Shown: positions 7,910 through 27,247, numbered from the stretch's first letter. The stretch: DNA of 64,000 nt from an uncultured Candidatus Saccharibacteria bacterium (GCA_964510945.1 CAZEED010000002.1:80924-144923); one strand, 5' to 3'. The notes: generated by a model not told the origin, from the sequence alone. Made by a program: numbers and translations.

Positions 7910-9712
7910 TTATCGATTCTCTTCTTCTGGTGCCCGATAAGTTCTTGCTTCTGAATGCGCGACATCAGACCAAGTTTCAGCCCTGGTGACTCGCCTAACT
8001 CCCCTTGTTCTATCGATAGGATCCGACCAAGATGCTGCGTACCTTGGGTCAGCTGCTGCCCTTGCTGAATTGTATTTCTCATCGTAAGTTACAGTTGCAG
8101 GTAGGCCGGTTGTAGGATCAATTCTACCGGTTGCAGTTGCCATGTAAGCTTCTAGCTCGCCAGGACCACCGCCTGGAGGCCTTCCATGAGCATCTAAAGC
8201 CTCTCTTTGGGCGATAAGAGCATCTCGTGTGGCCCCTGTGGAGTTAGGAATCATTGCGTCTAGTTCTTGACGAAATACAGCAGCTTGGTGCAGAGCATCT
8301 GGGTCTCCAGTAGCCATGCGATCAATAATCTCTTCACCCATTCCTTGAATTGTGGAAGGTTGAGCATTAGCGAGTTGATACAATGATGCTTTTTCGCCAC
8401 CTTCGGTTGCTGTTCCGGCTCCAAGATCGAAACGCCCAGCACCCCTGGCATGATACTGAAATGCTCCAAGCGCTTCTGCAGCTTTACTATCATTACCATC
8501 GGCTAGCCTGCTAGCACCAGCCGCTACTAAGCCATTAGCCCCCGCACCAAGCGAACGGGCTTTATTCTGAGCAAGACCGTTAAACGCGGCTGCTGCGTTG
8601 GTCTTTGTCACACCTACGGCACGTGCAGCTGCAGTAGCTTGTGAGACTCTAGCATCAGCTTGCGCAAGAGCGTCAGCGTGAGATGCCCCCTTGGCTCGTT
8701 GCTGTTCATACCAGTGATTTCTAAGTTCTGCTTGTGCTTGTTTCATTCCTTCGCTTGTACCTCCACTTAAACCGAGTAATGCAGTTGCATCATCATTATT
8801 TAGCATCATAGATTGCAATTCAGGGTTCTTGGCTGCTTCTGTTTCTGCAACCTGCTTCTTAAGTTTAACAGCTTCTCGACCTCGTTTTCCAAGCCCAAAT
8901 CTATTGGTTGCCCCAACGCCTAAACCTGCACCGATTCTGTTAACCCTTCGTCCCAGAGCTGTTCGTTCTTTCATATTGCCGCCCATGAAATTCTGACCGC
9001 GTTCTGCCCATTTTTTCTTTTGGCGGTTTTTGCCCATACCTTGGGCCCAGTTTTGGGCACCGGCACCACGTTGCGCTATTGCGCCACCCATGGCTGCGAA
9101 GGCACTACCAGCAAGCGAAAAGGTTTTTGGGATAAGAAGTAATGGCACAAAAAATCCTGCCAGTACAATAGTAGTCTTTACGATGTCTCCGTTAGGATCG
9201 TGCCCTGCGATAAAGGCAAATATTCTGCCCGCGGCAATCATTGCCATAATCAGCGGGAACATCAGCAGGAGTTTGGTAAAGTTGTCCCACCACATCTTCC
9301 AAAACCGCTCGGTATTGGGTAAGATCCAGGCGACGAGTGCTATTGGCGAGAGAAGTACTAATAGAATCAGTAGGGCTCGCCGCACAGCAAGACTCAAAAA
9401 AGCCACTAATACAGCTATTACCACAAAAGCAGCGATTGCTAGTACTCCACCACCAAAGGCTACACCTACGGTTGCAAATAACAGGGTTGTACCGAGTGTT
9501 GTGGCACTAGAGCTTGATGATCCAGCCAGCAGAGAATCTAGGCCAAAATTCGCCGATCCTCCAAATGCTCCGTACATTAAACCTTCAATACCAAAGGCTA
9601 TCTGGTTAGTGATAAAAATAGCACCGGTTGTAATAAACCACGATAATTGGATCAGAATAACAGCAATAGCTAGTCGTGGTAGAACCTTCTTTACCGTATA
9701 AGCATCAAACAT
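7910..9712 (-). CDS. Polytopic membrane protein, VirB6/TrbL-like candidate, with a long Ala/Gly-rich soluble C-terminal half
   Basis: 600 aa. The first ~230 aa contain about 6 hydrophobic helices. Operon context with VirB4 and PrgI-like genes. No sequence motif is diagnostic by eye. Confidence 0.5.
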   Translation of the reverse strand: MFDAYTVKKVLPRLAIAVILIQLSWFITTGAIFITNQIAFGIEGLMYGAFGGSANFGLDSLLAGSSSSSATTLGTTLLFATVGVAFGGGVLAIAAFVVIAVLVAFLSLAVRRALLILLVLLSPIALVAWILPNTERFWKMWWDNFTKLLLMFPLIMAMIAAGRIFAFIAGHDPNGDIVKTTIVLAGFFVPLLLIPKTFSLAGSAFAAMGGAIAQRGAGAQNWAQGMGKNRQKKKWAERGQNFMGGNMKERTALGRRVNRIGAGLGVGATNRFGLGKRGREAVKLKKQVAETEAAKNPELQSMMLNNDDATALLGLSGGTSEGMKQAQAELRNHWYEQQRAKGASHADALAQADARVSQATAAARAVGVTKTNAAAAFNGLAQNKARSLGAGANGLVAAGASRLADGNDSKAAEALGAFQYHARGAGRFDLGAGTATEGGEKASLYQLANAQPSTIQGMGEEIIDRMATGDPDALHQAAVFRQELDAMIPNSTGATRDALIAQREALDAHGRPPGGGPGELEAYMATATGRIDPTTGLPATVTYDEKYNSARAAADPRYAASWSDPIDRTRGVRRVTRAETWSDVAHSEARTYRAPEEENR

Positions 9713-9898
9713 ACTATTCCTTACTTACTGCTTGTCCTATTATCATAACTAGTCCGATAACCACAAGCAATACACTAGCTATATTCCTAAAGTAAGACCA
9801 AGCCTCCTTCAACCCATCATCATTAATCTCTGCCCTACCCACCTGCAACATATCAGCTATAGCATTAACCATAGAATCTACAGAAGAGTCGACGATAC
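9711..9898. repeat. 188-bp direct repeat, copy 1 (3-prime end of paralog A plus its stop and flank)
   Basis: Aligned by eye with 10555-10742. One mismatch (A at 9885 versus G at 10729). Similarity drops sharply beyond 9898. Confidence 0.9.
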
Positions 9899-10553
9899 TC
9901 AAGACTAAGCAGACTAGCCATGCACCCGGAAAATCAAAACTGTCTTCACACTTCGGCTCACTATCGTCGGTGCTTGCTGGTGGTGCGGTAGCGGATCCTG
10001 GGGCTTCTGGAGCTTCAACCGGATCCGGCACACCATCAGCATCATCATCAGTACGATCAACAAAATCTTCTGCTATTTCAGTATCGCCGATTGTAGGTTC
10101 TGTTTCGCCTACTGATCTGTCGAGTTTGTCTTTGGATACACGAATTCCTGCAGAATTACTGGAAGGCGAATTCAATAGGCTAGCAAATTGCCACTCGCTA
10201 TTTAGCATAAAATCATCAGAAGATAGAATAAATTGAGGGAGGTCATCTACTGTTTCGGCTCGTTGGTTTGGCCTACAATAAATATATAACCACTTTTTGC
10301 CGTTATCTTTTTTTCTCTTCAGCGTATCTACAAGAGGATTGTTTCCCCCAGCATCCTCTATTAAGTCAATATCTGCTTGAGTTGGGGTTCTCGTTACGTA
10401 TGCACAAGGAAAATCTGTCAAGACGTCTTCTAGGCTATCCAACGAGGGCTCTGCAAGCACAATCCTTGGCGAAAATATCAAGATAAACATCGGTGCTAAC
10501 ACTAAAAGTATCATGAGATAGCTTTGAAGTCTTTTTAAAATGATTTTGTTCAA
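9714..10553 (-). CDS. Secreted/membrane-anchored protein, paralog A: variable acidic ectodomain plus a conserved C-terminal two-helix module
   Basis: 279 aa, TTG start with a signal-peptide-like N-terminus (MNKIILKRLQSYLMILLVLAPMFILIFSPRIVLA). The C-terminal ~62 aa are identical to those of the next gene (...IVDSSVDSMVNAIADMLQVGRAEINDDGLKEAWSYFRNIASVLLVVIGLVMIIGQAVSKE). Confidence 0.7.
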   Translation of the reverse strand: MNKIILKRLQSYLMILLVLAPMFILIFSPRIVLAEPSLDSLEDVLTDFPCAYVTRTPTQADIDLIEDAGGNNPLVDTLKRKKDNGKKWLYIYCRPNQRAETVDDLPQFILSSDDFMLNSEWQFASLLNSPSSNSAGIRVSKDKLDRSVGETEPTIGDTEIAEDFVDRTDDDADGVPDPVEAPEAPGSATAPPASTDDSEPKCEDSFDFPGAWLVCLVLSIVDSSVDSMVNAIADMLQVGRAEINDDGLKEAWSYFRNIASVLLVVIGLVMIIGQAVSKE

Positions 10554-10554
10554 G

Positions 10555-10742
10555 ATACTATTCCTTACTTACTGCTTGTCCTATTATCATAACTAGTCCG
10601 ATAACCACAAGCAATACACTAGCTATATTCCTAAAGTAAGACCAAGCCTCCTTCAACCCATCATCATTAATCTCTGCCCTACCCACCTGCAACATATCAG
10701 CTATAGCATTAACCATAGAATCTACAGAGGAGTCGACGATAC
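10555..10742. repeat. 188-bp direct repeat, copy 2 (3-prime end of paralog B)
   Basis: Same as copy 1, offset 844 bp. Confidence 0.9.
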
Positions 10743-11670
10743 CGAGCACAAAACAAACAATAAATCCCCCGGTAAAATTAAATTGTTCATCGCAAGTCTT
10801 TGGGCTTTCCGGCACAGGTTGGCCAAGACCTAAATCTAATCCGTCACCACAGGCATCTACTGAAAAATCAGCTGGCCCCACAGTACGAACCACTCTTTTA
10901 TTACCCGTCATATTAAGATTGCCAGTATCGAGGAAGACTATATTCGTTCTACCACGACAATCTATTCTGGAATTGTAAAGTAACTCGTATGTATATTTGC
11001 CCGGGTCTACTCTTTTCATGTATTCTCTTTCGTTCGAGTTGATTCCAGTAGGAGTAAAAATAATCGGATCTCCACCACCTTCTGGAGTAATAGAAACTCT
11101 AACTAATTCTGCCTCAGAATCTGTTTTGGGGAATGGTGTTTTTTGCAGATTATTTTCTGGATCCAAAAACGAGAGCACAAAAGTTAACCTTACCTTGTTT
11201 TCTATCTCATCAGTTACATCGATGGTTGTTTCTTTATCGCGTCCACATTCATTGGTTAGATCCACATTTTTTGTAATCTCATCACCCCTACTTGTAGTTA
11301 CTGTTAGTGTGAATTTTGCAAATTCGGCAGTGAATATATCGTTTCCGCCTGTTTCACACCAACCCTTAATATCGATATTGGTAACCTCGAAGTGATCTTC
11401 GTGCCTAGATAGTTCATACGTACTTTCAACACCCTCTAGCTCATCTTGTCGGTCAATTCTTAAGGTTGCATCTGGGTCATCTGGTTCCAGGTAGACAATT
11501 AGCGCTGAATCTTGTGGGTCATCGGGATCTGCATGTCCTGCTGATACTTTATGAGTAGAAAATAATGTCACGCTGGCGACAGGCATTATTAGGGTAAACA
11601 TAAAAATGCTAAGAAACACTAAAATCCTAGACTCTATATTTTTAGATGGCTTTGTTTTGAATGACATCAT
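10558..11670 (-). CDS. Secreted/membrane-anchored protein, paralog B: different Cys-containing ectodomain plus the same C-terminal two-helix module
   Basis: 370 aa with an N-terminal signal/anchor (ILVFLSIFMFTLIMPVASVTLF). Shares the motif C-x-[DE]-x-F-[DN]-F-x-G-x-[WF]-[LI]-V-C and the identical C-terminus with paralog A. The N-terminal ~290 aa show no similarity to paralog A. Confidence 0.7.
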   Translation of the reverse strand: MMSFKTKPSKNIESRILVFLSIFMFTLIMPVASVTLFSTHKVSAGHADPDDPQDSALIVYLEPDDPDATLRIDRQDELEGVESTYELSRHEDHFEVTNIDIKGWCETGGNDIFTAEFAKFTLTVTTSRGDEITKNVDLTNECGRDKETTIDVTDEIENKVRLTFVLSFLDPENNLQKTPFPKTDSEAELVRVSITPEGGGDPIIFTPTGINSNEREYMKRVDPGKYTYELLYNSRIDCRGRTNIVFLDTGNLNMTGNKRVVRTVGPADFSVDACGDGLDLGLGQPVPESPKTCDEQFNFTGGFIVCFVLGIVDSSVDSMVNAIADMLQVGRAEINDDGLKEAWSYFRNIASVLLVVIGLVMIIGQAVSKE

Positions 11671-12349: not shown

Positions 12350-13054
12350 ATGATAAGAAGAATCTTTACCTTGTCGTTTCTATATACTTTCAGTGCTATT
12401 TTTATTAGTTCTGGATTACTAATGATGCTTTTCTCTGCCACAGTAATTGCAGAATCTTCAGATGTCTTTCATTTTACGTGCAGATCTCAAGATGGCTCCG
12501 AAGATGATGTTGTTTTAGGCCGAGGAAACCCACCTAAAATAAAATGCGCTACTAGGACTTCGACCCTAGGACGAGCAAATATAGGTCAAGATGACCCCGA
12601 TAACAAATACGATAGTTTTAGAATAACCTGTCAAACCGGAGAGCCAAAACTAAATATACTATCTACATTACCAGAGTGTTCAGACGGATCATCTCCGGTG
12701 GTAGAAGATCTTGACGAAGGTTCGCTAGCCGTTCCTCCTGTAGCGACTACACCTCCTGGCTCCGGGGGGGCTGCCACGGGTCGGTTTGAGTGCACGGGTG
12801 ATGCTTGTGTGACCGACAATCCGATCACAAGATTCTTGATAACCGTTGTTAACTTTTTAAGTGCACTGGTTGGAATAATAGTGATTGCTGTAATTATAAT
12901 AGCCGGGATTCAATACACAACATCAGGGGGGAACCCTCAACAAGCGGCGCAGGCGAAAAAACGAATTATTAATGCCGTCACGGCGCTAGTGGCCTTCTTT
13001 TTCTTGTTTGCGATTTTGCAGTGGTTGATACCAGGGGGTATATTTAAGTCATGA
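12350..13054 (+). CDS. VirB2/TrbC-like T4SS pilin paralog 1, with a ~150-aa extra N-terminal ectodomain
   Basis: The C-terminus LITVVNFLSALVGIIVIAVIIIAGIQYTTSGGNPQQAAQAKKRIINAVTALVAFFFLFAIL matches the two-helix pilin module shared by the next five genes. Cys pair FECTGDAC precedes it. Pro-rich linker VPPVATTPPGSGG. Confidence 0.7.
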   Translation: MIRRIFTLSFLYTFSAIFISSGLLMMLFSATVIAESSDVFHFTCRSQDGSEDDVVLGRGNPPKIKCATRTSTLGRANIGQDDPDNKYDSFRITCQTGEPKLNILSTLPECSDGSSPVVEDLDEGSLAVPPVATTPPGSGGAATGRFECTGDACVTDNPITRFLITVVNFLSALVGIIVIAVIIIAGIQYTTSGGNPQQAAQAKKRIINAVTALVAFFFLFAILQWLIPGGIFKS

Positions 13055-13431
13055 ATCTAATCCCTGCATTGCTATCTAGATTTGCTGCAGCTTGCCCTGA
13101 GCAATCAGTCTTTGGTATCCCGACTTGGTATAAATATTTGCCTGCAGAGACAGTTAACGGTGAATGTAAACTACTCGGTGATTTTGCTCAAAGTAAGTTG
13201 GACTCACTACTAGGTATTGGGCTGGCGATCACTGAGATATTACTTTTTATTGCCGGTTTTTTGGCTATCGTATACGTTGTCTACGGTGGGTTTCGCTACG
13301 TTTTAAGCCAAGGTGAGCCAGAGAATACAAAAATTGCTAAAGACGCTATTTTAAATGCGGTAATTGGGCTGGTTATTGCAGTACTTGCCAGCGCTATTGT
13401 TAGATTTATTGGGAATAGTATATCGACATGA
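13051..13431 (+). CDS. VirB2/TrbC-like T4SS pilin paralog 2
   Basis: 126 aa. Module is LLFIAGFLAIVYVVYGGFRYVLSQGEPENTKIAKDAILNAVIGLVIAVLASAIVRFI. ATGA overlap with the upstream gene. Confidence 0.7.
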   Translation: MNLIPALLSRFAAACPEQSVFGIPTWYKYLPAETVNGECKLLGDFAQSKLDSLLGIGLAITEILLFIAGFLAIVYVVYGGFRYVLSQGEPENTKIAKDAILNAVIGLVIAVLASAIVRFIGNSIST

Positions 13432-13742
13432 TCAACATCCAGTATCTGATGATTAGAGTTGCGCAGTTAATTCCAAATCCGGGCACTAAGTTACCGAATC
13501 AAAATGTGACCGAAGCTAGCCTGCAGACTACGATTGCTAATGTCTTTACGATTGTTTTTGGTGCATTGGGAGCTATCTCGGTGTTAATTATCACGCTAGC
13601 TGGCCTGCAGTACATCATGTCTGGTGGCGATCCAGCCAAGACTGCCAAGGCCAAAGATACCATTATGTACGCTGTAATTGGGTTAGTTGTGGCTGTTTCT
13701 GCGGGGGCGATTGTTAATTTTGTACTTAAGAAGGCGACTTAA
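13428..13742 (+). CDS. VirB2/TrbC-like T4SS pilin paralog 3
   Basis: 104 aa. Module is FGALGAISVLIITLAGLQYIMSGGDPAKTAKAKDTIMYAVIGLVVAVSAGAIVNFV. ATGA overlap with the upstream gene. No Cys pair and no obvious signal peptide. Confidence 0.65.
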   Translation: MINIQYLMIRVAQLIPNPGTKLPNQNVTEASLQTTIANVFTIVFGALGAISVLIITLAGLQYIMSGGDPAKTAKAKDTIMYAVIGLVVAVSAGAIVNFVLKKAT

Positions 13743-13746
13743 GAAT

Positions 13747-14127
13747 ATGCTGAGAAAACTCTCATTACTACTGCTAACAATTTTTAGTTGTTTTTATGTA
13801 GCGTTCCCAGCTGTAGTACTAGCGACTGATCCAATCGAACAAGTTTGCCAGATTAATCCAGATTCGTCGGTTTGTAAATCATCTACAACCGAAAATCCTA
13901 TATTTGGCTCAAAAGGCATAATAACTAGAATCACAAAAGTATTAGGGTTTGTTGTCGGAGTAGCCGCCGTGATCATGATTATTATCAACGGATTTAAGTT
14001 TGTGCTATCGAATGGCAATCCCGAGAATGTAACCAAGGCAAAGAACGGAATAATTTTTGCCATAATTGGGCTTTTGGTTGCCTTGTTTGCAGAGGCTATT
14101 GCAATTTTTGTAATGCAGAGGCTATAG
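13747..14127 (+). CDS. VirB2/TrbC-like T4SS pilin paralog 4
   Basis: The track ORF starts at 13687 and overlaps the previous gene. ATG 13747 gives a signal peptide MLRKLSLLLLTIFSCFYVAFPAVVLA, a Cys pair QVCQINPDSSVC, and the module VGVAAVIMIIINGFKFVLSNGNPENVTKAKNGIIFAIIGLL. Confidence 0.75.
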   Translation: MLRKLSLLLLTIFSCFYVAFPAVVLATDPIEQVCQINPDSSVCKSSTTENPIFGSKGIITRITKVLGFVVGVAAVIMIIINGFKFVLSNGNPENVTKAKNGIIFAIIGLLVALFAEAIAIFVMQRL

Positions 14128-14153
14128 TATTAACAGAAAAAAGGATAACAAAA

Positions 14154-14609
14154 ATGAACAAATCAAAAATCAAAAACATCTTTTTAAGCTTTATGCTCGT
14201 GCTGGGTATGATTACGCCAGTATCTTTTGCTATTCAATCTAATGCTTTTGCTTTGGTAGATGATACTCCAGCCGGTGATGGCATTGACCCAACCGCCGAG
14301 GTATCTTCGGCACAAAGCGATGTATGTAATGGAATCAAGGCCACCGGCGGGACATGTGATGATGCCCCAGGCGCCAAAACTGTCAAAGACATTATTGCAC
14401 TTGCAATCAATATTCTGAGCTTTATTGTCGGAGTAGCCGCCGTGATCATGATTATTATCAACGGATTTAAGTTTGTGACTTCTAGCGGGGAAACAGCGGC
14501 AGTGGCTAGCGCCAAGAACGGAATAATCTTTGCAGTTATTGGTTTGGTGGTGGTTGCTTTGGCTCAAGTAATTGTCAGATTCGTAGTTAATAGAGCGACT
14601 GGTCTATAG
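14154..14609 (+). CDS. VirB2/TrbC-like T4SS pilin paralog 5
   Basis: Signal peptide, Cys pair DVCNGIKATGGTC, and module VGVAAVIMIIINGFKFVTSSGETAAVASAKNGIIFAVIGLVV. Confidence 0.75.
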   Translation: MNKSKIKNIFLSFMLVLGMITPVSFAIQSNAFALVDDTPAGDGIDPTAEVSSAQSDVCNGIKATGGTCDDAPGAKTVKDIIALAINILSFIVGVAAVIMIIINGFKFVTSSGETAAVASAKNGIIFAVIGLVVVALAQVIVRFVVNRATGL

Positions 14610-14681
14610 ATACACTTGTATTGCGTATCAACAATGCTTATGATAAATTTAAACTAACAACAAACATAAGGAAACACACTA

Positions 14682-15101
14682 ATGAATAAACTTATCAAGC
14701 GAATAACTTTAACTACAATAGCTTTATTTACAATTTTAGCACCGGCAGGTCTTGCCGTCTCCCCAGTTTTTGCAGTTTCGGACGCTAATATCGATGATAA
14801 CCTATGTAAGGGTGCAAATCTTGATGTTACCGATGGTACCTGTTCTACTGATCCCGTAGAAGCACAACAGACTGTAAACGATATTATCGCAACCGTTATT
14901 AATATATTCTCGATCGTTGTTGGTGTAACAGCGGTGATTATGATAATTGTTGGAGGCTTTCAGTATATTACCTCTGGTGGTGATAGTGGTAAGGTGACGA
15001 CAGCCAAGAACACCATATTATTTGCGATAGTCGGTCTAGTTATAGTCGCGCTTGCTCAGGTAATAGTTAACTTTGTCCTATCAAAAGCCATAGACGTTTA
15101 A
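14682..15101 (+). CDS. VirB2/TrbC-like T4SS pilin paralog 6
   Basis: Signal peptide, Cys pair NLCKGANLDVTDGTC, and module VGVTAVIMIIVGGFQYITSGGDSGKVTTAKNTILFAIVGLVI. Confidence 0.75.
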   Translation: MNKLIKRITLTTIALFTILAPAGLAVSPVFAVSDANIDDNLCKGANLDVTDGTCSTDPVEAQQTVNDIIATVINIFSIVVGVTAVIMIIVGGFQYITSGGDSGKVTTAKNTILFAIVGLVIVALAQVIVNFVLSKAIDV

Positions 15102-16661: not shown

Positions 16662-16749
16662 GGAGAGGTGCAGGAGTGGTTGAACTGGCCGCTCTCGAAA
16701 AGCGGTAAGGCGTAAGCCTTCGTGGGTTCGAATCCCACCCTCTCCGCCA
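16662..16749 (+). tRNA. tRNA-Ser (anticodon CGA), CCA encoded
   Basis: Acceptor GGAGAGG/CCTCTCC, anticodon arm CCGCT-CTCGAAA-AGCGG, long variable arm, T-arm GTGGG-TTCGAAT-CCCAC, 3-prime GCCA. Confidence 0.9.
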
Positions 16750-16792
16750 ATAAAATATCCCCACCTGACTAGAGTGGGGTTATTTTATTGAT

Positions 16793-16924
16793 AGAGTTCA
16801 AAGCCAACTGCTTGGCTTTGAAGGGATTCGAACAGTCGGAACGTAGTTTGCCGGTACTCGGCAAACCGTGAGACGAGCTCATGAGCAAATTGCAAAGCAA
16901 TTTGACTTGGGAGTCGTATATCCC
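16793..16924. ncRNA. Candidate structured RNA / tRNA-linked repeat, copy S-A (132 nt)
   Basis: Identical to 25902-26033 except for 5 substitutions confined to one hairpin. Helices: TTCAAAGCCAA/TTGGCTTTGAA, closing GGGAT/ATCCC, GTTTGCCG/CGGCAAAC, CAAATTGC/GCAATTTG. Single-stranded motifs AGTCGGAA (16834-16841) and TGAGACG (16869-16875). Strand undetermined. Confidence 0.55.
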
Positions 16925-16940
16925 ACCCTCTCCGCCAATA
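16920..16940 (+). repeat. 21-nt perfect duplicate of the tRNA-Ser(CGA) 3-prime end plus 3 flanking nt
   Basis: ATCCCACCCTCTCCGCCAATA occurs at 16732-16752 (within and just past the tRNA) and again at 16920-16940, a 188-bp period. Confidence 0.9.
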
Positions 16941-17621: not shown

Positions 17622-17685
17622 ACTGTTTTTAACTCACTATTCTGGCAATTTATGGGGCTACGTGTTAGTATGGCCTCTGTTATAT

Positions 17686-17741
17686 GTACCCGTAGCCTAA
17701 GCGTGATAGAGCGCATCCCTCAGGGTGGATGAGGCCAGAGG
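17686..17741 (+). pseudogene. 5-prime portion of a tRNA-Arg-like gene (acceptor through the T-stem 5-prime strand), with an 8-nt anticodon loop
   Basis: GTACCCGTAGCCTAAGCGTGATAGAGCGCATCC-CTCAGGGT-GGATGAGGCCAGAGG is collinear with positions 1-53 of the intact tRNA-Arg at 17890. It stops exactly where the T-loop should start. Confidence 0.7.
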
Positions 17742-17853
17742 CGAGAACAGCCCGATGGCTGTTCGCAGAGTCGGAAGCCTGGCGCAAATTATTGCCCAAG
17801 CTGAGACGGGGTCGCATAATTTGTTCAACAAACAAATATCTGCGACAGAATCC
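17742..17853. ncRNA. Candidate structured RNA, divergent member (R-up) of the S-element family
   Basis: Same order of elements as S-A and S-B. Hairpin GAACAGCC/GGCTGTTC, then AGTCGGAA (17769-17776), an imperfect hairpin GCCTGGCGCAA/TTGCCCAAGC, TGAGACG (17802-17808), and helix GTCGCA/TGCGAC enclosing hairpin ATTTGTT/AACAAAT. Spacing between the two motifs is 33 nt versus 35 nt in S. Confidence 0.5.
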
Positions 17854-17889
17854 TGATTCGAACCTTTACATGATAAATTTTGCAAATAT

Positions 17890-17966
17890 GTACCCGTAGC
17901 TCAGCTGGATAGAGCGCATCCTTGCGGAGGATGAGGCCAGAGGTTCGAATCCTCTCGGGTACACCA
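17890..17966 (+). tRNA. tRNA-Arg (anticodon GCG), CCA encoded
   Basis: Acceptor GTACCCG/CGGGTAC, D-arm GCTC-AGCTGGATA-GAGC, anticodon arm CATCC-TTGCGGA-GGATG, T-arm AGAGG-TTCGAAT-CCTCT, 3-prime ACCA. Confidence 0.9.
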
Positions 17967-18110
17967 TCCTCCGTCGTTTGCCTTTCTGGCAAACTATGAA
18001 GGTTTTTTTATTTGATTGAGGATTCGAGCCGATAGGCGAAAACAGTTGGGAACTGTTTGAGTTATAAATATTTCTAGCGAAATGCTTTAGCTCTTGAGCG
18101 GATAACATAA

Positions 18111-18133
18111 TTCGAATCTTCTCGGCTACACCA
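18111..18133 (+). pseudogene. 3-prime portion of a tRNA-Arg-like gene (T-loop, T-stem 3-prime strand, acceptor 3-prime strand, CCA)
   Basis: TTCGAAT-CTTCT-CGGCTAC-A-CCA. It pairs with the 5-prime fragment at 17686-17741: the T-stem gives 5/5 pairs including one G-U, and the acceptor gives 6/7 pairs. Confidence 0.65.
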
Positions 18134-25647: not shown

Positions 25648-25715
25648 AAGCACATTCTACATTGCATTAACAAATACTGGAAGAGTTGTCTTGGGTGTTC
25701 ATGTGAGATTTCCTC

Positions 25716-25724
25716 TGTTATAAT
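25716..25724 (+). promoter_or_regulatory. Extended -10 promoter element TGTTATAAT upstream of tRNA-Ser(GCU)
   Basis: CCTCTGTTATAAT lies 35 nt upstream of the tRNA. The same 13-mer core recurs at 26054-26067 and, as CCTCTGTTATAT, at 17674-17685. Confidence 0.6.
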
Positions 25725-25759: not shown

Positions 25760-25852
25760 GGAGAGGTACCCAAGTGGCTGAAGGGGACGGTTTGCTAAAT
25801 CGTTAGTGGGGCGCAAGTTCCAGCGAGGGTTCGAATCCCTCCCTCTCCGCCA
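25760..25852 (+). tRNA. tRNA-Ser (anticodon GCU), CCA encoded
   Basis: Acceptor GGAGAGG/CCTCTCC, anticodon arm ACGGT-TTGCTAA-ATCGT, long variable arm, T-arm GAGGG-TTCGAAT-CCCTC. Confidence 0.9.
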
Positions 25853-25857
25853 AAAAA

Positions 25858-25892
25858 ACGACCGCACTCATATTTTGAGTGGGGTCGTTTTT
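25858..25892. terminator. Rho-independent terminator after tRNA-Ser(GCU), bidirectional in form
   Basis: 13-bp stem ACGACCGCACTCA/TGAGTGGGGTCGT with one mismatch. A-run upstream and T-run downstream. Confidence 0.8.
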
Positions 25893-25901
25893 ACGAGAGC
25901 G

Positions 25902-26033
25902 AGAGTTCAAAGCCAACTGCTTGGCTTTGAAGGGATTCGAACAGTCGGAACGTAGTTTGCCGGTACTCGGCAAACCGTGAGACGAGCTCATGAGCAAATT
26001 ATGGAGTAATTTGACTTGGGAGTCGTATATCCC
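25902..26033. ncRNA. Candidate structured RNA / tRNA-linked repeat, copy S-B (132 nt)
   Basis: See copy S-A. The only differences (GCAAAGC versus ATGGAGT within CAAATT...AATTTG) keep the hairpin paired. Confidence 0.55.
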
Positions 26034-26058
26034 GACACTATAAATAGGCTTAGGCCTC

Positions 26059-26067
26059 TGTTATAAT
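26059..26067 (+). promoter_or_regulatory. Extended -10 promoter element TGTTATAAT upstream of tRNA-Ser(UGA)
   Basis: GGCCTCTGTTATAAT ends 11 nt before the tRNA 5-prime end. Confidence 0.65.
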
Positions 26068-26078
26068 TCATGAGTCAT

Positions 26079-26168
26079 GGAGAGGTGCCCGAGTGGTTGA
26101 AGGGACCGGTCTTGAAAACCGGCAGGCCCGCAAGGGTCTCGTGGGTTCGAATCCCACCCTCTCCGCCA
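26079..26168 (+). tRNA. tRNA-Ser (anticodon UGA), CCA encoded
   Basis: Acceptor GGAGAGG/CCTCTCC, anticodon arm CCGGT-CTTGAAA-ACCGG, long variable arm, T-arm GTGGG-TTCGAAT-CCCAC. Confidence 0.9.
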
Positions 26169-26197
26169 TCCTTGGTAGCGAAGCCATCTAGGCTTAG

Positions 26198-27247
26198 TTA
26201 TGAAGGATTTTTTTGATCAAGATTTAATGGTGTTTTGTTTTCTACTGGTATTTTCGGCTTTAGTCTATTAATGAAGATTGTGAAGATAATAACGCCTATT
26301 ACGCCGATTATTAACAGAGTAATTCCAGAATTTTGCAAAATCCGTGCCCAGTCTGAGAAGATGGTTTCTGCTAGTTTTTTGAGCGACTCTATCGGTGCTT
26401 GGCTAGAGTTGTCACTGGTGGTTGGCATTAGATTGCTGATTGAAAATCTTAACATTATGGCTGAAATAGTCAGAAAGACCCCTGTAATTAGTAGAGTCAC
26501 ACTCCCCTTTCTGGCTCCATGAAGTTTCGTTTTGCTCAGCATTACAACCCCAACCAAACTGATAATCAGCAATATAAATGCGTAGGGAAAGATCTTTTCA
26601 ACAAGTTGAAAAAGTTTAGGTATAGTCTCTGGCGTGTTCTCGTTAATTGGCGCCGAAAAGCCCAGATCCTCGGCTTCTTTATTAGTTAGGCTCCCATCGC
26701 TGGTTGTGCTGTCAGAGAACACATCGTTATTGAGGTTAGCTTGGTCAATTGCTTCATCAATTAATTGATTAACGTTAGTACCGCTTGGGATGCAGTCAAT
26801 ATTACTGATATCTTCAAGATTAGGGATCTGCCCGTAGGCACAAGTTGGGAGTGTTTTGGCTCGCACTTTCAAAGCCTTAGAATACGTACTAACGAAAGAA
26901 TCTTTAATCTTGTCGATATTAATAACTATTTTCGGTGTTTTTGTCTCTCCGTTAAGCCAAGCGTAGCTGGCATCAATAACAGGATTGGCAATCTTTTGAA
27001 TATTTTCTGGTGAGGCTGCGGTCGCGATGGATTTGGCTAATAATTTGTTACTGGGATCATCTTTGGTGGCCTGTTTGACAATAATTTTGCTTGTCTCTAT
27101 ATATAGACCTGATTCAGTAATAGAATTTGCTAGATATTCCTTGTCGCCAATCGTGTGATGAAAGCTATATACAAACACTAATGTGTAAATCGCCGGTGCT
27201 AAAAGCCCAACAGACAAAATTAAACCGATTTTTTTCAGGATATTCAC
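26198..27247 (-). CDS. Hypothetical membrane protein (N-terminal anchor, ~200-aa ectodomain, C-terminal multi-TM region)
   Basis: 349-aa ORF with a GTG start. No motif. Confidence 0.6.
   Translation of the reverse strand: MNILKKIGLILSVGLLAPAIYTLVFVYSFHHTIGDKEYLANSITESGLYIETSKIIVKQATKDDPSNKLLAKSIATAASPENIQKIANPVIDASYAWLNGETKTPKIVINIDKIKDSFVSTYSKALKVRAKTLPTCAYGQIPNLEDISNIDCIPSGTNVNQLIDEAIDQANLNNDVFSDSTTSDGSLTNKEAEDLGFSAPINENTPETIPKLFQLVEKIFPYAFILLIISLVGVVMLSKTKLHGARKGSVTLLITGVFLTISAIMLRFSISNLMPTTSDNSSQAPIESLKKLAETIFSDWARILQNSGITLLIIGVIGVIIFTIFINRLKPKIPVENKTPLNLDQKNPS

Follow-up and report, generated by a model that had tools for sequence, protein, structure and literature searches.

Integration of mycobacteriophage Ms6 takes place in the T-loop of a tRNA-Ala, and the attP core of this phage carries the tRNA 3' end (PMC1762012); partial tRNAs are reported to remain as att remnants in arrays (bioRxiv 10.1101/2020.12.28.424599). 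The locus described here lies in a 64,000-nucleotide stretch of DNA from an uncultured Candidatus Saccharibacteria bacterium (the window, by which the whole stretch is meant), and it shares with T-loop tyrosine-integrase sites of the Ms6 and tycheposon-array kind an intact tRNA at one junction and a T-loop-to-CCA repeat at the other, together with tandem units, strain-variable content and breaks that fall exactly at the tRNA end. It differs in that the units are only ~150-230 nt long, with no integrase and no cargo except a tRNA gene in some, in that the putative crossover arm is a covarying three-way-junction fold inside a T-stem mimic, and in that split-tRNA 5' fragments with replacement tRNA genes and several module types are also present.

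A second comparison is with integron attC sites and the CTX-phage attP, on which host XerCD acts. Structure that is kept as sequence drifts, folding of one strand, a closing stem that rebuilds a target-like duplex, the lack of an own recombinase and arrays of genes with structured sites are common to both. The elements here, however, have neither integron core sites (RYYYAAC/GTTRRRY) nor a dif-like site, their target would be a tRNA T-arm, a single-stranded DNA form would be purely hypothetical, and any link to IntI or Xer would be conjectural. Archaeal tRNA introns (near 59/60) and the split tRNAs of Nanoarchaeum likewise interrupt the T-loop and have halves separated by DNA; in the present case the halves are decaying, no bulge-helix-bulge is evident and no copy has both complete exons. 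The splicing endonuclease for archaeal tRNA introns is not known from bacteria. The group I introns in Patescibacteria tRNAs lie in the anticodon loop, at 35/36 and classical sites, are recognized by group I intron models, and are self-splicing with intact exons (PMC13011429). They resemble the present elements as tRNA-associated structured RNAs of this bacterial group that were missed by standard annotation, and they differ from them in that the elements here occupy the T-loop with a ~100-nt core, have no Rfam group I match and have incomplete exons. The genomic context agrees with the known class of T-loop integration sites; what sets the present elements apart is how small they are, that no integrase accompanies them, that a covarying fold lies inside a split T-arm, and that replacement tRNAs and several module types occur. 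A literature search found nothing on T-loop-embedded modules in Saccharibacteria.

A structured repeat family beside the tRNA genes

The window has four tRNA genes, each with one such element alongside (Table 1). Two of the elements, S-A (16793-16924) and S-B (25902-26033), are 132 nt each and 96% identical in a repeat search of the window, with five substitutions (16892, 16893, 16894, 16895 and 16898 in S-A; 26001-26004 and 26007 in S-B). The first-pass annotation had placed all five in one hairpin with pairing preserved, and the S-A/S-B alignment bears this out: they fall in hairpin 3, which reads CAAATTGC-AAA-GCAATTTG in S-A and CAAATTAT-GGA-GTAATTTG in S-B, and pairing is retained, with one G-C pair turned into A-U and one C-G pair into U·G. 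The two-motif pattern AGTCGGAA-N(25-27)-TGAGACG gives three matches on the + strand of the window and none in 100 shuffles. R-up, proposed earlier as a diverged member, is a true one, since a covariance model built from S copies only matches it at 17737-17862 (E = 0.006-0.007) and also matches its orthologues in the related contigs L020 (13309-13433) and L022 (10855-10933), which are 91-93% identical. The fourth element, R-down, is not matched by the S-based model. The sequence and the tRNA gene calls also agree with the earlier claim that three copies stand beside tRNA genes or fragments, and the fold stability of all copies exceeds that of shuffles (z from -3.7 to -4.7).

Table 1. Positions of tRNA genes, modules and accompanying elements in the window, with modules of further types in other loci
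Feature	Coordinates	Strand	Basis
tRNA-Ser(CGA), intact	16662..16749	+	ARAGORN; Rfam tRNA 54.7 bits
Palindromic terminator-like hairpin, tRNA-Ser(CGA) to S-A	16750..16792	+	sequence; terminator scan match 16759-16779
S-A leader: AGAG (partial acceptor-5'-like run) and HP1 TTCAAAGCCA-ACTGCT-TGGCTTTGAA	16793..16822	+	
S-A core: three-way junction closed by T-stem mimic GGGAU/AUCCC	16823..16924	+	RNAalifold consensus; pair counts; covariance model 168 bits
S-A core, T-loop 5' half TTCGAAC	16827-16833	+	
S-A core, motif 1	16834-16841	+	
S-A core, HP2	16846-16866	+	
S-A core, motif 2	16869-16875	+	
S-A core, P3 plus HP3	16877-16915	+	
S-A core, T-loop 3' half TCGTATA	16914-16920	+	
Exact direct repeat of last 18 nt of tRNA-Ser(CGA), ATCCCACCCTCTCCGCCA	16920..16937	+	repeat family D3
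Promoter-like CCTCTGTTATAT, then decaying tRNA-Arg 5' part ending in T-stem 5' strand AGAGG	17674..17741	+	
R-up module	17742..17864	+	covariance model match 17737-17862
tRNA-Arg(GCG), intact, between R-up and R-down	17890..17966	+	ARAGORN; Rfam
Terminator cassette TCCTCCGTCG-hairpin-TATGAAGG-T run	17967..18017	+	sequence
R-down, degraded module without motifs 1 and 2	18018..18110	+	by-eye alignment with R-up and L020 13583-13677
tRNA-Arg 3' end fragment TTCGAATCTTCTCGGCTACACCA	18111..18133	+	2 changes in window; exact in L020
tRNA-Ser(GCT), intact	25760..25852	+	ARAGORN; Rfam
Terminator hairpin, tRNA-Ser(GCT) to S-B	25853..25901	+	sequence
S-B: leader, HP1, core 25932-26033	25902..26033	+	repeat search; covariance model
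tRNA-Ser(TGA), intact, own promoter, downstream of S-B	26079..26168	+	ARAGORN; Rfam
Type 2 modules	L022:15790-15923; L049:2256-2393; L070:4806-4912 (minus strand)		
Further module types in same slot	L239:2800-2899; L242:7105-7200; L022:10586-10722; L239:2345-2445		

For the fold, three R-up copies were aligned on structure with 10 distinct S copies, which align cleanly among themselves; together they represent five Saccharibacteria lineages. The RNAalifold consensus of the S copies consists of HP1, a closing helix, P2, and P3 enclosing HP3. The closing helix GGGAU/AUCCC is extended by CG/CG from two TTCGA halves, and P2 is made of GUC/GAC, an internal loop GGA/GA and RCG/CGY, followed by HP2. 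In the resulting 13-sequence alignment, which was fitted to the model and therefore somewhat favors structure, the 44 base pairs show standard pairs in 96.8% of cells (31-44% with partners slid), changes on both sides in 29 pairs (2-8 with partners slid) and a covariation score of 0.518 (0.04-0.10 with partners slid); none of 500 shuffles attained the observed values, except for the number of further pair types, where three did. An alignment made by MAFFT only already contains 20 double-change pairs. The nine-pair HP1 helix has changes on both sides in eight pairs across copies, and its loop AACTGCTT is kept in L038, L041 and L070. The 29 double-change pairs uphold the compensatory changes noticed at first, and further homologues and covariation were both found. 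Two other elements of that description did not hold. The two motifs had been described as single-stranded, but they pair with each other: the GUC of the first forms a helix with the GAC of the second, and the final base of motif 1 covaries with the base that opens motif 2 (A-U in nine sequences, G-C in four). Moreover, the helices do not all differ as had been stated; from S to its distant homologues they change gradually, with covariation.

Which strand folds? Cells with G·U number 24 and those with A·C four, and one G·U is present in 10 of 10 S copies (its bases are unpaired in all three R-up copies); it is therefore the tRNA-sense strand that folds. The junction and internal-loop bases GGGAUUCGAACAGUCGGAR and YGAGACG are invariant, as is the internal loop GGA/GA between GUC/GAC and RCG/CGY, which as a kink-turn would have a bulge of 1 nt instead of 3 nt. 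Palindromic protein sites in duplex DNA, considered as a source of the covariation, are disfavored by the 24:4 ratio of G·U to A·C and by the nested long-range helices. A protein-coding reading was rejected on the basis of the compensatory substitution pattern and of ORFs that are only short, spurious and on the minus strand. In a close strain (L007:1862-1869 and 1905), AGTCGAAA replaces the otherwise invariant AGTCGGAA of S-A; the contig has a coverage of 0.87x, and the variant may be a sequencing error or a real internal-loop variant.

The fold matches no Rfam family, which agrees with the earlier description. With Rfam 15 at the gathering threshold, tRNA alone reached threshold in the window and its relatives, and at E values up to 10 no match overlapped the core itself; the S-A leader is touched by one match only, a snoRNA hit at chance level on the minus strand (16730-16827, E = 3.4). 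The other module types, type 2 included, had no Rfam match either. Families ruled on in this way include RNase P, SRP, tmRNA, 6S, T-box, ribozymes, Y RNA, HEARO and IS605-orfB. ARAGORN found no tmRNA in the window or the other loci, and the acceptor 5' strand is only partial. A group I intron was rejected because the core has ~100 nt and three helices, no Intron_gpI match was obtained and no copy has both complete exons. Hammerhead and small ribozymes gave no fit by eye (the junction strands are AACA, GR and none) and no Rfam ribozyme match. Integron attC sites were rejected since the half-sites are TTCGAAC and TCGWAWAT rather than RYYYAAC/GTTRRRY and no integrase was found among the window ORFs scanned.

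T-loop junctions, tRNA tails and split tRNAs

The core sits between the halves of a T-arm, flanked 5' by GGGATTCGAAC and 3' by TCGTATATCCC, and usually precedes an exact copy of the last 18-23 nt of the neighboring tRNA. The copied tail matches the local tRNA, namely Ser(CGA) in the window, Arg(TCT) in L038 and Ser(GCT) in L041, and the Arg(GCG) tail of L020, which stands after the related R-down module, is a further exact case. In the window the repeat ATCCCACCCTCTCCGCCA comprises T-loop positions 59-60, the T-stem 3' strand, the acceptor 3' strand, G73 and CCA. Among the Saccharibacteria loci, 11 of 28 tRNAs have such a tail repeat 148-233 nt downstream, compared with 1 of 30 in unrelated loci; 10 of these 11 repeats fit the last 16 nt of their own tRNA with at most two mismatches, and the eleventh is a Ser(TGA)-like tail that stands behind tRNA-Ser(GCT) in L022. 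Upstream of the same 28 tRNAs no tail repeat was found except at tandem Ser genes. The tail is decayed in S-C, a further copy that follows tRNA-Ser(TGA) in L020, and in R-down of the window. S-B has no tail; its last bases are ATATCCC, and a promoter comes next, CCTCTGTTATAAT (26055-26067).

The T-arm relation extends beyond the tails. The T-stem 5' strand before S cores is TGGGA irrespective of the local tRNA (L038, L041, L070), the T-loop plus T-stem 3' strand of tRNA-Ser has its perfect reverse complement in GTGGGATTCGAAC of S, and AGAGGATTCGAACC of the L020 R-down stands in the same relation to tRNA-Arg. The earlier reading of the architecture was right as to the element family and had overlooked this split T-arm context, the tRNA tail copy, the promoter-bearing tRNA-Arg 5' fragment to which R-up is fused, and R-down.

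At two kinds of locus the tRNA itself is split. On the minus strand of L070, a tRNA-Tyr 5' part (acceptor GCTGGGG; Rfam tRNA 27.2 bits) leads into a type 2 module and TCGAATCCCTT; next come a quite different, intact tRNA-Tyr with a terminator, HP1, an S core and AATCCCTCCCCCAGCACCA. The tail of the S module, CCCCAGCACCA, fits the split tRNA-Tyr and not the intact one, and the two junctions have GGTGACTCGAA(A)TCCCT in common. As judged from its sequence, L070 holds a resident tRNA that was split at the T-loop by DNA bringing in another tRNA to replace it. The same arrangement, modules at both junctions included, is seen at the Arg locus in the window and in L020. Here the tRNA-Arg 5' fragment holds positions 1-53 (17686-17741; identified by comparison with tRNA-Arg(GCG) at 17890, by blast and by the promoter motif), and R-up runs in the order CGA, HPa, TTCGCAG, motif 1, HP2, motif 2, P3/HP3, AATCCT and GATTCGAACC, where AATCCT is the T-loop 3' half plus the start of the T-stem 3' strand; a promoter and the intact tRNA-Arg with its terminator follow. 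R-down begins with GAGGATTCGAGCC, an inverted T-arm piece, and continues with GATAGG, CGA and HPa, and across 17967-18133, from the terminator through the tail, the window and L020 are 87% identical. When examined as tRNA-targeting integrative elements, the loci show a direct repeat from T-loop to 3' end with an intact tRNA present. It is quite probable that the tail repeats and split tRNAs arose by insertion or recombination in tRNA T-loops.

Several minor features accompany these junctions. An extra hairpin insert of ~65 nt in L020 (10956-11020) splits a tRNA tail directly after ATCCC, and its junction ATCCC/TGTCCGTC turns up again in a second copy, which lies on a different contig from that genome (L049:2569-2580). 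The promoter-like CCTCTGTTATA(AT) occurs exactly three times in the window (17674-17684, 25712-25722 and 26055-26065), always in front of either a tRNA gene or the tRNA-Arg 5' fragment. A terminator cassette made of TCCTTCGTNGC, a variable hairpin and TATGAAGGATTTTT recurs after different tRNAs in different genomes (window 17967-18010 and 26169-26215; L020 13538-13580; L022 10541-10585; L070 ~4699-4655, minus strand), as if travelling together with the tRNA gene.

Occupancy in relatives and other module types

The ComF homologues of the window carry Saccharibacteria names, and its gene order is also found in contigs L001/L011, L002, L020 and L022. In L020 (ComF 77% identical) S stands behind all three tRNA-Ser genes and both R-up and R-down are present; L022 (ComF 70%) keeps R-up and has other structured modules after tRNA-Ser(CGA) and tRNA-Ser(GCT), ending in a tRNA-Ser tail. 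The two-motif pattern was scanned over 596 Gb of species-representative genomes and over JGI metagenomes. The genome scan returned 25 loci, eight of them real and from four Saccharibacteria assemblies (DAISWO01, CAZPAW01, RIFCSPHIGHO2_12_FULL_47_17, which is L038, and SMAG_U751, which is L041), and the metagenome scan returned 65, of which three on two to three contigs are real and L070 was added. The remaining loci were rejected as chance matches within GC-rich coding DNA. Within these collections the S/R family is confined to about five lineages, and in the viral contigs of IMG/VR no real S/R, type 2 or type 3 match was found (one badly chosen pattern gave chance matches only).

How stable is the occupancy of a given site? 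Behind tRNA-Ser(CGA), the window and L020 carry S, L022 and L239 have a different module type, and the site is empty in L041, where the Ser(CGA), Ser(TGA) and Arg genes are bare. L041 has its element after tRNA-Ser(GCT) and L038 after tRNA-Arg(TCT), each ending in the tail of its own tRNA. The interval from Ser(GCT) to Ser(TGA) contains S-B in the window and L020, and in L239 a 38-nt spacer without S-B. Occupied, empty and differently occupied sites are thus seen between species, with no precise excision product among them, and in contigs of close strains the divergence sets in precisely at the end of the tail (L007) or of the tRNA (L248).

Unrelated DNA directly after the CCA of tRNA-Ser(GCT) or tRNA-Ser(CGA) was also noted at L248:1-216 (minus strand) and L005:3988-4290; both contigs encode neighbor proteins identical to those of the window, and the GC-rich stretch of L005 may stem from chimeric assembly. 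L022 (15745-15925) lacks an intact tRNA-Ser(TGA) in the orthologous position and has just a module with a tail of the Ser(TGA) type behind it; the essential gene must therefore be elsewhere in that genome.

The other modules use the same T-loop slot. Type 2 has the order GGGTGAGAA-hairpin-TTCGCAAGGAAA-hairpin-TTTCGGG-hairpin-GAATCCC with the same T-stem mimic closure, and in three sequences 16 of its 37 predicted pairs have double changes; a variant of it follows tRNA-Ser(CGA) in L022 and L239. Type 3 (TTCGGCGTAGCGAGAGA...GAGCGGAG) follows tRNA-Arg(GCG) and tRNA-Ser(GCT) in L239 and L242, where it is preceded by ~9 nt of the local variable region and the T-stem 5' strand (AGTCACAAG, AGCGCGGAG).

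Origin and possible role of the modules

We tentatively favor the view, at somewhat less than an even chance, that these are miniature, integrase-less, trans-mobilized integrative cassettes targeting the T-loop, with the fold as their cis-acting arm. The repeat would be the conserved non-coding core of very small elements at the T-loops of Saccharibacteria tRNA genes, and a unit would run from a working tRNA gene through a terminator hairpin, HP1, the T-stem 5' strand and the ~100-nt core to the T-loop 3' half with the T-stem 3' strand, the acceptor 3' strand and CCA. It would originate by site-specific insertion into a tRNA T-loop, the displaced tail marking the far junction, and tRNA function would be retained because the incoming DNA brings either a matching tail or a whole replacement tRNA with promoter and terminator. 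The closing helix, made of the T-stem mimic and two palindromic TTCGA halves, would give a duplex like that of a T-arm gene from a single strand, so that the fold may serve as an attachment arm recombined in trans by a putative enzyme, as folded single-stranded DNA or as RNA. This explanation is preferred because of the covarying structure, the tail repeats, the split tRNA of L070, the turnover of sites, the strain-level breaks and the T-arm reverse complements. The earlier description as a functional RNA or RNA-structured mobile element keeps its structured family, real compensatory changes and tRNA link, and its mobile-element wording comes near to this reading.

Several observations count against such cassettes. 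Neither an integrase, a transposase nor a reverse transcriptase lies beside any copy; there is no ORF between the repeats and the neighbors are housekeeping or unknown genes. A 397-aa ORF upstream of the L049 array was considered as a recombinase and has no recombinase domain. No full-length autonomous element carrying a module was found, and this lack, with that of a nearby recombinase and of copies in IMG/VR, speaks against the reading. Ordinary double-stranded attP arms do not need intrastrand pairing, which also counts against it. Different module types stand at the two junctions of a split tRNA, which a single crossover does not explain, and cassettes leave the partial acceptor-5'-like run ahead of HP1 unaccounted for. 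The idea that S-A and S-B bound an island was rejected since the 9 kb between them hold mostly conserved genes without a recombinase, in an order that relatives share. The function of the fold is less certain than the probable origin of the tail repeats and split tRNAs by T-loop insertion.

Conservation between the window and L020 bears on the same question. S cores are 95.5-97% identical, compared with 86% for tRNA-Ser(CGA), 88% for the terminator before S-A, 74% for the flank past the S-A tail and 54% for the stretch before the S-B core, and R-up (91-93%) exceeds its fused pseudo-tRNA part (80-86%). Conservation of the core above its flanks suggests, from sequence comparison, selection on the resident copies, and both contrasts argue against a purely selfish trans-mobilized element. 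The hairpin-3 allele of S-B is the same in the window and the L020 species; the copies therefore predate the species split and were kept. Such retention fits a function of resident copies, as RNA or as a cis element, better than a purely selfish relic.

The main alternative, possible though rather unlikely, is accordingly that the modules are host-retained, tRNA-linked small RNAs or cis-acting RNA domains for which the integration-like context is an evolutionary origin only. They would be transcribed in tRNA sense by read-through or within a tRNA precursor, R-up by the promoter of its tRNA fragment, and would act as RNA, for example as a T-arm mimic bound by a tRNA-handling protein. Cores that are conserved like tRNAs amid neighboring non-coding DNA at 54-74%, the excess of R-up over the fused pseudo-tRNA, pairing (including the invariant G·U) that favors the tRNA-sense strand, the invariant junction and internal-loop bases, the GGA/GA loop that could form tandem G·A pairs, and the promoter-like sequence of R-up with no terminator before the next tRNA all accord with this proposal. 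However, the right-hand copies stand directly behind a terminator with no promoter detected, occupancy is patchy in relatives with unrelated module types at the same site, the tRNA-like end is dispensable (decayed in S-C of L020 and R-down of the window, absent from S-B), and the family is limited to about five lineages of the genomes and metagenomes scanned.

It is rather improbable that the module is a small T-loop-specific mobile insertion, MITE-like or intron-like, that kills the tRNA copy it enters and survives in redundant or displaced copies, the tail repeats and replacement tRNAs stemming from separate earlier integration or duplication events. Each module type does break the T-loop at a position of its own between the T-stem 5' and 3' strands, type 3 keeps its ~9 nt of local variable region and T-stem 5' strand, an otherwise complete tRNA 5' part precedes both R-up and the left module of L070, and S is flanked by TTCGA...TCGAA. 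On the other hand, TGGGA precedes S cores whatever the tRNA and so travels with the element, nearly all tRNA fragments have a module (at most one candidate bare fragment, in L049), and no uninterrupted tRNA with a module, as an intron would predict, was seen. The flanks, when examined for a MITE, are palindromic TTCGA halves only, with no longer inverted termini or terminal inverted repeats. A functionless decaying duplication of tRNA-flanking DNA, whose compensatory look would be one clustered mutation, could account for five S-A/S-B differences within 7 nt and is nevertheless effectively refuted by the fold and pair counts, since distant Saccharibacteria homologues retain all helices through many independent double changes and conservation is far above that of the flanks; we regard it as extremely improbable.

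If the cassette reading is true, a covariation-supported structured family with several sister types would be added to the very small non-coding repertoire of Saccharibacteria, and DNA would be seen to enter the T-loops of essential tRNAs without loss of the tRNA and apparently without an element-encoded recombinase. It would then bear on the exchange and replacement of tRNA genes and on the origin of tRNA-adjacent variable regions in ultra-small symbiont genomes, as well as on folded single-strand attachment sites beyond integrons and Xer-dependent phages. A more specific version, which we offer as a speculation with little probability, is that CPR bacteria have an undescribed class of integrase-less "tRNA-gene cassettes" for which the modules provide folded single-strand attachment sites (or guide-like RNAs). 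The stem that closes a module, GGGATTCGA/TCGAAAATCCC, would rebuild the duplex of the T-arm gene, a trans-acting recombinase would splice the cassette into the resident T-loop, and the tail or replacement tRNA of the cassette would keep the cell alive, an attC- or CTX-like system aimed at the sequence that is most conserved across all tRNA genes. Should they instead be host RNAs, they would form a new class of tRNA-mimicking small RNAs. Under either reading, annotation pipelines currently overlook both the elements and the surrounding tRNA fragments.

Elsewhere in the window, 12350-15101 and 13948-15043 hold paralogous small genes that match T4SS pilin families in related contigs; these paralogues share repeats of 41-57 nt (D4, D5), and TrbL- and PrgI-like genes lie upstream in relatives. 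A direct repeat of 231 nt, 92% identical (9708-9938 and 10552-10782), spans the adjacent minus-strand ORFs 9714-10553 and 10558-11670, which are probably paralogous genes.
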